Assembly: GCA_963841905.1 (NCBI GenBank)
Contig: CAWJEM010000022.1
Coordinates: forward strand, 92,835 to 156,834
Source of the DNA: an uncultured Acidobacteriota bacterium
GTDB lineage: Bacteria; Acidobacteriota; Vicinamibacteria; Vicinamibacterales; UBA2999
Length of the DNA stretch: 64,000 nucleotides
Direction: 5' to 3'
The notes under the pieces are model-generated. The model saw only the letters and a list, made by a program, of their open reading frames with translations, had not been told where the DNA came from and did not search any database. Below are positions 12,258-12,512 of this stretch, in pieces. The stretch's first letter is position 1. Every line of letters starts with the position of its first letter. Made by a program: the position numbers and the translations under genes.

Positions 12258-12512
12258 CGTGGTTCTTCACGATGGTTCTTCACGATGGTTCTCCACGGTC
12301 GGTCGACCGGGGGTTCTCCACGATTGTTCTGAAGACCGCCGTCAAGAACCGTTGTCGAGCCGCCGTACAGAACCTACGTGAAGAACCGTCGTGAAGAACC
12401 TTCGTGAAGAACGGCCGTCCTGCGTCAAGAACCTGCGTCAAGAACCCTCGCCAAGAACCGTCGTCGAACCGTCGTCGAGAACCATCGTGACGAACCTCCG
12501 TTGAGAACGCTC
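12258..12512. repeat. 13-nt unit array, GATGGTTCTTCAC-type left arm and about 13 GTGAAGAACCNTC-type units on the right
   Basis: gtggttcttcac gatggttcttcac gatggttctccac ... then gtcaagaaccgtt ... gtgaagaaccgtc gtgaagaaccttc gtgaagaac ... gtcaagaacctgc gtcaagaaccctc gccaagaaccgtc ... It fills the divergent hutH/purA gap. Confidence 0.9.

Follow-up and report, generated by a model that had tools for sequence, protein, structure and literature searches.

The gap between the divergent genes hutH and purA in a 64,000-nucleotide (nt) stretch of DNA from an uncultured Acidobacteriota bacterium (contig CAWJEM010000022.1; hereafter, the window) is occupied by an array of 13-nt units, and the question is what such an array does, if anything, between two genes that start back to back. 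The answer we consider rather likely is that it is an expandable hairpin-forming repeat, a member of a dispersed, fast-evolving family, which fills dispensable DNA between two leaderless promoters of the −10-only type. For hutH and purA this is a deflationary answer, as the array is then probably not a dedicated regulatory device.

The hutH/purA array and the boxes that flank it

The intergenic gap extends over 293 nt, from the hutH start codon (12237–12239, minus strand) to the purA ATG at 12533, and the array (12261–12518) occupies 88% of it. A preliminary description of this DNA had proposed a 293-nt gap between divergent starts, almost wholly composed of 13-nt units, about 5 of one type followed by about 13 of the other. 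These proposals stand: Pfam confirms both genes (Table 1), the sequence and the repeat finders agree on the filling of the gap, and the counts and coordinates were essentially right, as we now count about 6 GGTTCTTCACGAT-type units and, after them, about 14 units of the reverse-complementary CGTGAAGAACC type. A hutH of 504 amino acids is likewise called in relatives L169, L171, and L173.

The units with an intact GGTTC core start at positions 12261, 12274, 12287, and 12312 in the left arm; the GAACC core is intact in ten units of the right arm, where the period is 13 nt, with some units of 11–12 nt, and where matches amount to 72% and indels to 13% in Tandem Repeats Finder. The arms are reverse complements of each other (36 nt, 92% complementary by an inverted-repeat finder); hence, the two runs together make up a single long imperfect palindrome instead of being unrelated arrays, a point that the preliminary description did not make. 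The unit GGTTCTTCACGAT has no internal complementarity, and pairing is seen only between the two arms. With at most one mismatch, GTGAAGAACC has 25 matches in the window versus 3.3 expected, a count reached in none of 100 shuffles, and all matches except two fall in this array or in a second 13-nt array near the right end of the window (Table 1). None of the Rfam 15 covariance models yields a gathering-score match anywhere in the window, and a permissive Rfam scan of 12150–12650 gives chance-level matches only (E above 2). Since the window contains probable frameshifts, e.g., in the split hutU, single-base indels within units may be assembly errors; the arrays as such are found again in assemblies made independently, by several projects and from several sources (JGI and ENA metagenomes).

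Folded as a single strand, the segment 12255–12520 forms one long hairpin, with a minimum free energy (MFE) of −111.6 kcal/mol as RNA (z = −5.4) and −59.8 kcal/mol as DNA (z = −4.6); right-arm units near the centre pair with the left arm, while about eight distal right-arm units have no partner. The RNA MFE of the second array is −134.4 kcal/mol (z = −10.7). Maintenance of the hairpin by compensatory change was considered and rejected, identity at variable positions being 0.459 in the symmetric register versus 0.42–0.456 in shifted ones. The same measure gives 0.51 for same-arm neighbours and 0.41 between loci. The pairing of the arms stems from their shared consensus, not from arm co-evolution.

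A pure terminator role, against which the preliminary description had rightly argued, is impossible here, as the gap is truly divergent and both hutH and purA point away from the array. No T-run, the U-tract of an intrinsic terminator, follows either arm. The lone match to the terminator consensus is a 5-bp stem within the first unit.

Just outside the array, on both sides, lie −10-like boxes of the form TAnnnT (Table 1), and the array occupies exactly the stretch between them. In all retrieved relatives with 88–98% purA identity, TAnnnT stands 7–8 nt before the purA ATG, as TATCCT or TATTCT in the place of TACACT of the window. Across relatives with 69–98% identity, the variants are TACACT, TATCCT, TATTCT, TACGAT, TATCAT, and TAGAAT; most of the 69–76% relatives retain TAnnnT 7–10 nt before the ATG, L095 being an exception. 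The hutH box, TATCAT or TATGAT 7–9 nt before the ATG, is seen in L169, L171, L173, L174, and L175, that is, wherever the start is displayed (the left flank of L170 is cut off, and L181 runs into a contig end). Neither ATG is preceded by a Shine–Dalgarno motif. Taken together, boxes at 7–9 nt and the missing Shine–Dalgarno motif suggest that hutH and purA are probably both leaderless, with no 5′ untranslated region (UTR) in repeat DNA. The preliminary description had placed both promoters and 5′ UTRs inside the repeats, which does not agree with conserved boxes outside the array and with the absence of Shine–Dalgarno motifs. In 689 kb from this clade, TAnnnT beginning at −15 to −11 is found at 14.6% of crudely called first starts versus 1.3% of internal ATG/GTG codons, in agreement with the 13.3% of Acidobacteria genes predicted to be leaderless, with a box about 12 bp upstream (PMC3160421).

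The array overlaps the putative purA promoter only in the −35/spacer region, through its last two units, TCCGTTGAGAACG and CTCGTGCAG, both of which are kept in relatives while the interior of the array varies. The last unit, CTCGTGCAG, directly abuts the purA box; CTCGTG(A/C)AG is joined directly to the box in L169, L170, L171, L174, and L175, and L181 has TTCGTGAAG. Elsewhere, arrays end 4–10 nt short of TAnnnT-type boxes, e.g., gaacc-CCCG-TATACT-GATCAG-ATG and gaacc-GCGCC-TATAAT-CGTGA-ATG. A −35 element supplied by the units was rejected: the hexamers at the correct spacing, CTCCGT or GAACCn, are poor matches, and hence the promoters are treated as −10-only. A sigma-70 consensus scan finds no promoter in 12100–12700, so that the placement of the promoters relies on the comparative evidence.

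Turnover and dispersal of the 13-nt family

An exact look-up of the purA of the window yields no record, and relatives of the hutH/purA locus were gathered by homology searches. They share a conserved gene order: hutU and hutH lie on one strand, followed on the opposite one by purA and an ABC transporter gene. The preliminary description had asked whether array length varies; it does, from 0/1 to 6/14 units (GGTTC arm/GAACC arm) at 88–100% purA identity. The window (100%) has a 293-nt gap with about 6/14 units; L169 (98%), 277 nt and 8/7 units; L170 (93%), 134 nt and 2–3/8 units; L181 (93%), ending with its contig, at least 6 GAACC-arm units, including TTCGCCTAGAACC three times; L171 and L172 (91%), 93 and 92 nt and 1/3 units; L174 (90%), 291 nt and about 10/8 units; L175–L180 (89%), 114 nt and 3/3 units; and L173 (88%), about 87 nt and no array. 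The arrays of L175–L180, six metagenome samples of one population, are identical, and two 99.5%-identical strains differ by 1 nt in this gap. Between the window and L169, the flanking genes are 95–97% identical and both array edges are identical, while the interior is only 62% identical, which does not exceed the identity between non-orthologous units; a run of four GGTTCGKGCCGAC units is private to L169.

Among the 69–76% relatives, the shortest gaps comprise about 30 nt (L091, L096, and L097), and unrelated inserts are present in others: an 8-mer array (CTTCGTGT)n in L089 and a GGTTCG-type array in L093. Repeats have landed or expanded in this gap time and again. Unrelated long palindromic inserts, MITE- or REP-like, are also observed in this gap in L090 (3755–3900) and L095 (3745–3880).

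Two other orthologous series were compared. The second 13-nt array of the window fills the spacer between a conserved open reading frame (ORF) of 68 amino acids (62619–62825) and a MacB_PCD/ADOP-type permease gene (ATG at 63072). Its last unit contains GGAG (63062–63065) 6 nt before the permease ATG, and GGAG within the last unit, 6–9 nt before the ATG, is kept in all five relatives (L182–L186); this conservation identifies the array as an operon spacer, almost certainly transcribed between the two cistrons. The minimal state of the series is three GAACC-type units without a GGTTC arm in a 32-nt gap, found in 84% relatives. The unit counts are 0/3, 5/8, 4/6, and 5/12, against 5/13 in the window, with lineage-specific local amplification of unit variants (TTCGTCAAGAACC three times, TTCGTGAGGAACC four times, and CCCGTGAAGAACC three times). 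In the third series, the array lies between genes for a kinase and PadR and is retained in three species represented by metagenome-assembled genomes (MAGs), with 10/6, 10/6, and 7/3 units; just outside it, the promoter-like flanks hardly vary (TTGACG, 18 nt, TAGATT, 6 nt, ATG). The leaderless-type PadR promoter (L029 2742–2790, L080 570–617, and L027, reverse strand, about 200–250) encloses a perfect palindrome, CTACATCC..GGATGTAG, which is probably a PadR autoregulatory operator.

The family is dispersed. The exact two-unit pattern AAGAACCNNCGTSAAGAACC, scanned in one genome per species, is found at at least 88 loci among the matches listed, mostly in Acidobacteriota MAGs, those classified further being Vicinamibacterales. 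Single MAGs are rich in such loci, with at least 22 in one Acidobacteriota MAG and 16 in another. About 35 chance matches are expected in 596 Gb (our own arithmetic), which accounts for the single matches in unrelated phyla. A literature search on repeats of Acidobacteria and Vicinamibacteria, on inverted tandem and heptanucleotide repeats, and on the unit sequence itself found no description of 13-nt arrays. Short one-orientation runs of GTGAAGAACC-like units (4–8 copies), upstream of genes in two Actinomycetota genomes (Table 1), may be due to chance or represent an unrelated leader element.

The consensus of the unit is GGTTC-T-y-s-ACG-r-n. The profile of 557 units from 49 arrays, biased towards this consensus as the search pattern demands two good units, shows GGTTC followed by T (69%), y, s, A (69%), C (69%), G (67%), r, and n. 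The spacing between units equals 13 nt in 288 of about 460 intervals. All 52 two-armed arrays have GGTTC units first and GAACC units second, the opposite order being seen in none; as this order reads identically on both strands, the polarity is intrinsic. The centre is short: the final GGTTC and the first GAACC are 12–54 nt apart. A CGTG or CGTC motif occurs within the units, where it is paired with ACG of the opposite arm rather than forming an unpaired tag.

The arrays are high-copy in intergenic DNA only, sitting in gaps between called genes. By crude, GC3-based gene calls in the fetched loci, array-bearing gaps are co-directional in 34 cases, convergent in 17, and divergent in 10, as compared to 280, 79, and 89 array-free gaps at the same loci; hence, any preference for convergent gaps is mild, and divergent ones are not avoided. 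Truly divergent loci by Pfam are class II versus class I fumarase, VanZ-like versus PadR, and PadR versus a Ser/Thr kinase. Arrays typically span the entire gap, beginning 2–20 nt past the stop codon and finishing 16–50 nt before the start codon. Two further candidates were rejected. A link to PadR/ADOP operons, prompted by the three divergent loci, is seen for only 7 of 73 arrays, 3 of these 7 being one orthologous locus; the longer arm shows no consistent trend to face gene starts in co-directional gaps.

Further inverted arrays in the window

At least 13 further inverted tandem arrays, composed of 7–9-nt units, are present in the window, mostly right after stop codons (Table 1). Recurring families of short units are AGTTACA, AGGGCGT, ACGGTCC, GATCAC/GACCAC, CACGGAA, and CAGCAGC, each with one polarity. 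They occupy about 6 of 10 convergent gaps, several co-directional gaps, and none of the other approximately 10 divergent gaps; the hutH/purA gap is the only array-bearing divergent gap in the window.

The heptamer arrays turn over extremely fast. The hairpin after purA (13829–13936) is reduced to a single palindrome, GAAGTTACTTGTAACTC, in the 95–97% identical relative L169 (4291–4354). The gap between ABC2 and M20 genes (16002–16063) contains CAGCAGC/GGCAGCC units in the window, and GGCCGGT plus GATCACT in L169 (6379–6425); equivalents are at about 6985–7035 in L171 and L172, and this gap differs even between two 99.5%-identical strains. One array with 8-nt units (40596–40668), (GGTTCCAT)n followed by (GGAACCCT)n, has the GGTTC/GAACC core and the polarity of the 13-mer family; TATGCT, 7 nt, and ATG follow it, a leaderless-type geometry.

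The window also has genes that look frameshifted or truncated (8963–10629, 42718–46292, and 53582–55467), which are either assembly indel errors or pseudogenes. The gene hutU is split into two overlapping ORFs here and is an intact 555-amino-acid gene in L169. The gene of a tricorn-like protease is split as well, the N-terminus of G6PD is missing, and there is an Oxidored_FMN fragment. An RNase III gene (6773–7729) has an N-terminal DUF2007 extension and a heptamer hairpin array directly after it; this may matter, given that numerous long perfect hairpins would be present in the transcripts of such a genome.

Table 1. Features of the window and GTGAAGAACC-like runs elsewhere, with their positions
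Feature	Position	Strand	Basis or remark
hutH (histidine ammonia-lyase)	10725–12239	−	Pfam Lyase_aromatic, E = 2e-195
−10-like box TATCAT, 9 nt before hutH ATG; putative leaderless promoter	12249–12254	−	sequence and relatives
Left arm, GGTTCTTCACGAT-type units, 4 intact and 2 decayed	12261–12337		sequence and repeat finders
Right arm, nnCGTGAAGAACC-type units, 10 intact and ~4 decayed	12338–12518		sequence and repeat finders
Two purA-proximal units, TCCGTTGAGAACG CTCGTGCAG; −35/spacer region	12497–12518	+	alignment with relatives
−10-like box TACACT, 8 nt before purA ATG; putative leaderless promoter	12519–12524	+	sequence and relatives
purA (adenylosuccinate synthetase)	12533–13822	+	Pfam Adenylsucc_synt, E = 5e-181
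Second 13-nt array, 5 GGTTC-type then 13 GAACC-type units	62826–63070		pattern count and repeat search
Array of 7–9-nt units	7738–7826		
Array of 7–9-nt units	13829–13936		
Array of 7–9-nt units	16002–16063		
Array of 7–9-nt units	19798–19883		
Array of 7–9-nt units	24622–24796		
Array of 7–9-nt units	30272–30364		
Array of 7–9-nt units	31203–31361		
Array of 7–9-nt units	36148–36208		
Array of 7–9-nt units	39303–39334		
Array of 7–9-nt units	42591–42690		
Array of 7–9-nt units	46049–46118		
Array of 7–9-nt units	52521–52588		
Array of 7–9-nt units	55468–55593		
GTGAAGAACC-like run, Streptomyces stephensoniae	L066 3954–4085		no Rfam match
GTGAAGAACC-like run, Acidimicrobiia MAG	L030 3352–3395		no Rfam match

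Explanations and known repeat classes

In the explanation we favour, that of an expandable repeat filling dispensable DNA, the hutH/purA array would lie upstream of both transcription starts and be part of neither mRNA, so that roles at the RNA level would not apply at this locus. It would grow and shrink by local duplication or loss of interior units, through slipped-strand or hairpin-mediated replication errors, while the outermost units would be held constant wherever they overlap expression signals; those of the hutH/purA array would persist because of their overlap with the promoter spacer and −35 region. Any effect on hutH and purA would be at most indirect: the array may space the two promoters, which overlap in relatives, and supply upstream DNA, and it could possibly extrude as a cruciform under the negative supercoiling generated by divergent transcription.

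In favour of this explanation are the dispersal of the family, its indifference to gene context, the changes in unit number in three orthologous series, the fast turnover between the window and L169, the leaderless geometry, and the lack of any sign that exact pairing of the arms is selected. Several points weigh against it. The conserved core and the polarity fixed in 52 of 52 arrays are not predicted by plain neutral slippage, and hint at sequence-specific recognition or at the spread of a two-armed founder. In-phase units without GGTTC make up only about 6%, and neighbouring units are just 51% alike at variable positions. The array persists at hutH/purA across lineages with 89–100% identical purA, which could reflect a benefit. 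The −10-like boxes and leaderless starts we infer from sequence conservation alone. The crude gene calls and the consensus bias of the unit profile, mentioned above, count on the same side.

The spread of a founder is the substance of one alternative, a tentative possibility that addresses where the array came from and can be combined with the favoured explanation. Here the array descends from a non-autonomous REPIN- or MITE-like element, copied by a trans-acting transposase and then locally expanded. A two-armed founder would be the simplest source of a fixed polarity and of a unit common to many unrelated loci and genera, and the CGTC/CGTG of the units recalls CGTC-tagged REPs (PMC3733652). 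However, neither target-site duplications nor defined termini are seen at the boundaries of the hutH/purA array, Pfam reveals no transposase or RAYT among about 50 scanned proteins of the window, single units are not palindromes, unlike REPs, and the minimal orthologous states with 1/3 and 0/3 units look like growth in place rather than insertion.

It is doubtful that the array is a multi-site protein-binding platform, as the preliminary description had also suggested, in which each GGTTC...ACG unit binds an abundant nucleoid-associated protein or global regulator; head-to-tail sites would face the centre, and the bound array may insulate or co-regulate both promoters. In its favour, conservation within the unit is position-specific, with GGTTC, T6, and A9-C10-G11 conserved and the remaining positions near random, and the absence of arm covariation implies that exact pairing is not what is kept; the polarity fixed in all 52 arrays and the retention of the array at three orthologous loci across species point the same way. 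Yet 13-nt arrays also occur right after stop codons, between convergent genes, and in an operon spacer, at background rates; cores decay in orthologous copies; and relatives with gaps down to about 30 nt manage without an array. At least six other families of 7–9-nt units in the window share the inverted architecture, and as each of them would need its own protein, a structural common denominator is more economical. Pfam analysis of neighbouring proteins provides no candidate binding protein encoded beside the arrays and, for hutH/purA, no adjoining cognate regulator gene.

Equally doubtful is an undescribed repeat system of these Acidobacteria, in which units with a recognised core (GGTTC...ACG in the 13-nt family, and other cores in the families of 7–9-nt units) are written, maintained, or bound by a dedicated protein, invariably as two convergent runs, and serve as rapidly evolving structural punctuation between transcription units. 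If so, arrays at divergent promoters would function as insulators or cruciform sinks, and those in RNA as ends formed by hairpins or as sites of processing; the array at hutH/purA would then be an instance at the DNA level.

That the hutH/purA array is transcribed, with a promoter of one or both genes inside or beyond the repeats and a structured 5′ UTR, a long hairpin with a tail of unpaired units, controlling translation or stability, e.g., via RNase III, is improbable: both ATGs lack a Shine–Dalgarno motif and follow a conserved TAnnnT by 7–9 nt, the consensus scan of 12100–12700 is negative, and the same genes are served by gaps down to about 30 nt in relatives, against which stand the almost certain transcription of the second array with its conserved GGAG, the strong RNA folds of both arrays, and the −35-like TTGACG found in some units. 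Finally, a contingency locus, where high-frequency slippage in unit number would switch or tune hutH/purA, i.e., the repeat-number-dependent expression raised in the preliminary description, is highly improbable, and phase variation unlikely given the geometry and unit heterogeneity. Unit number does vary among related lineages, and runs of identical neighbouring units indicate recent local amplification, but the changes affect the interior, upstream of both putative core promoters, the two promoter-proximal units are constant, the array lies neither between −35 and −10, as placed from the sequence, nor in a reading frame or 5′ UTR, its units are heterogeneous, it is identical in six samples of one population and differs by one base between 99.5%-identical strains, and the flanking genes are housekeeping metabolic ones.

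In practice, 13-nt arrays will cause breaks or errors in the assembly of short-read MAGs and lead the calling of gene starts astray; they are potential high-resolution strain markers, and provide a natural experiment on the upstream DNA needs of −10-only leaderless promoters. They also raise the question of what enforces the polarity and the conserved core.

Among known classes, REP sequences are stem-loops of 20–40 nt with an unpaired GTAG or CGTC tag (PMC3733652, PMC3116915). Each unit of the class is an imperfect palindrome, with a stem of 5–13 bp and a loop, and a cognate RAYT (Y1 transposase) gene is flanked by the repeats. Like REPs, BIMEs, and REPINs, the 13-nt arrays are high-copy, intergenic, and family-specific, consist of inverted pairs with fixed polarity, form larger hairpins, often follow stop codons, and are tolerated in operon spacers. 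They differ in that the unit has no internal stem, the palindrome within each unit being the defining feature of the class; in having up to about 14 head-to-tail units per arm; in that no RAYT is seen among the scanned proteins of the window; and in their near-background frequency in divergent promoter gaps.

STRR heptamers are reportedly found in cyanobacteria (Mazel et al., 1990). Dispersed long simple sequence repeats (SSRs) have units of 5–11 nt, typically 7, including TAACTGA (Mrazek, 2007, as summarised in PMC4679880). Similar to both, the 13-nt family has a short, family-specific tandem unit at many intergenic sites of a lineage, in variable number, with slippage assumed; the differences are the 13-nt unit with a conserved core and variable linkers, the copies that are not near-identical, the two inverted runs with invariant polarity, and the occurrence in Acidobacteriota.

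MIRUs of mycobacteria have units of 46–101 nt in one orientation relative to transcription, contain small ORFs, and have no inverted arms. Dispersed intergenic tandem repeats, operon spacers, overlap with expression signals, and strain-variable copy number are common to MIRUs and the 13-nt arrays, while the architecture of inverted arms is absent from MIRUs.

In SSR contingency loci, e.g., of Haemophilus and Moraxella (PMC12721329, PMC4679880), perfect repeats of 1–7 nt lie between −35 and −10, in the 5′ UTR, or in the coding sequence, and their number thereby determines expression. Tandem repeats near a promoter, with unit number differing between isolates, are the shared trait; in the 13-nt arrays, however, the variable part is upstream of both putative core promoters, and the units are degenerate and arranged in two inverted runs.

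Iteron- and centromere-like arrays (ParR–parC, the heptads of omega proteins) are single-locus and mostly plasmid-borne, lie beside the gene of their binding protein, and are bound by ribbon–helix–helix proteins. Short direct repeats in two opposite blocks that flank or abut promoters, as expected of a binding platform, are the point of likeness; the 13-nt family, in contrast, has dozens of chromosomal copies in all gene contexts. Provided that our description is correct, the repeats of this major soil phylum include an architecture that falls outside all named bacterial repeat classes: tandem arrays in inverted pairs, of constant polarity, whose unit core is conserved and which turn over very fast between 95–99% identical strains.

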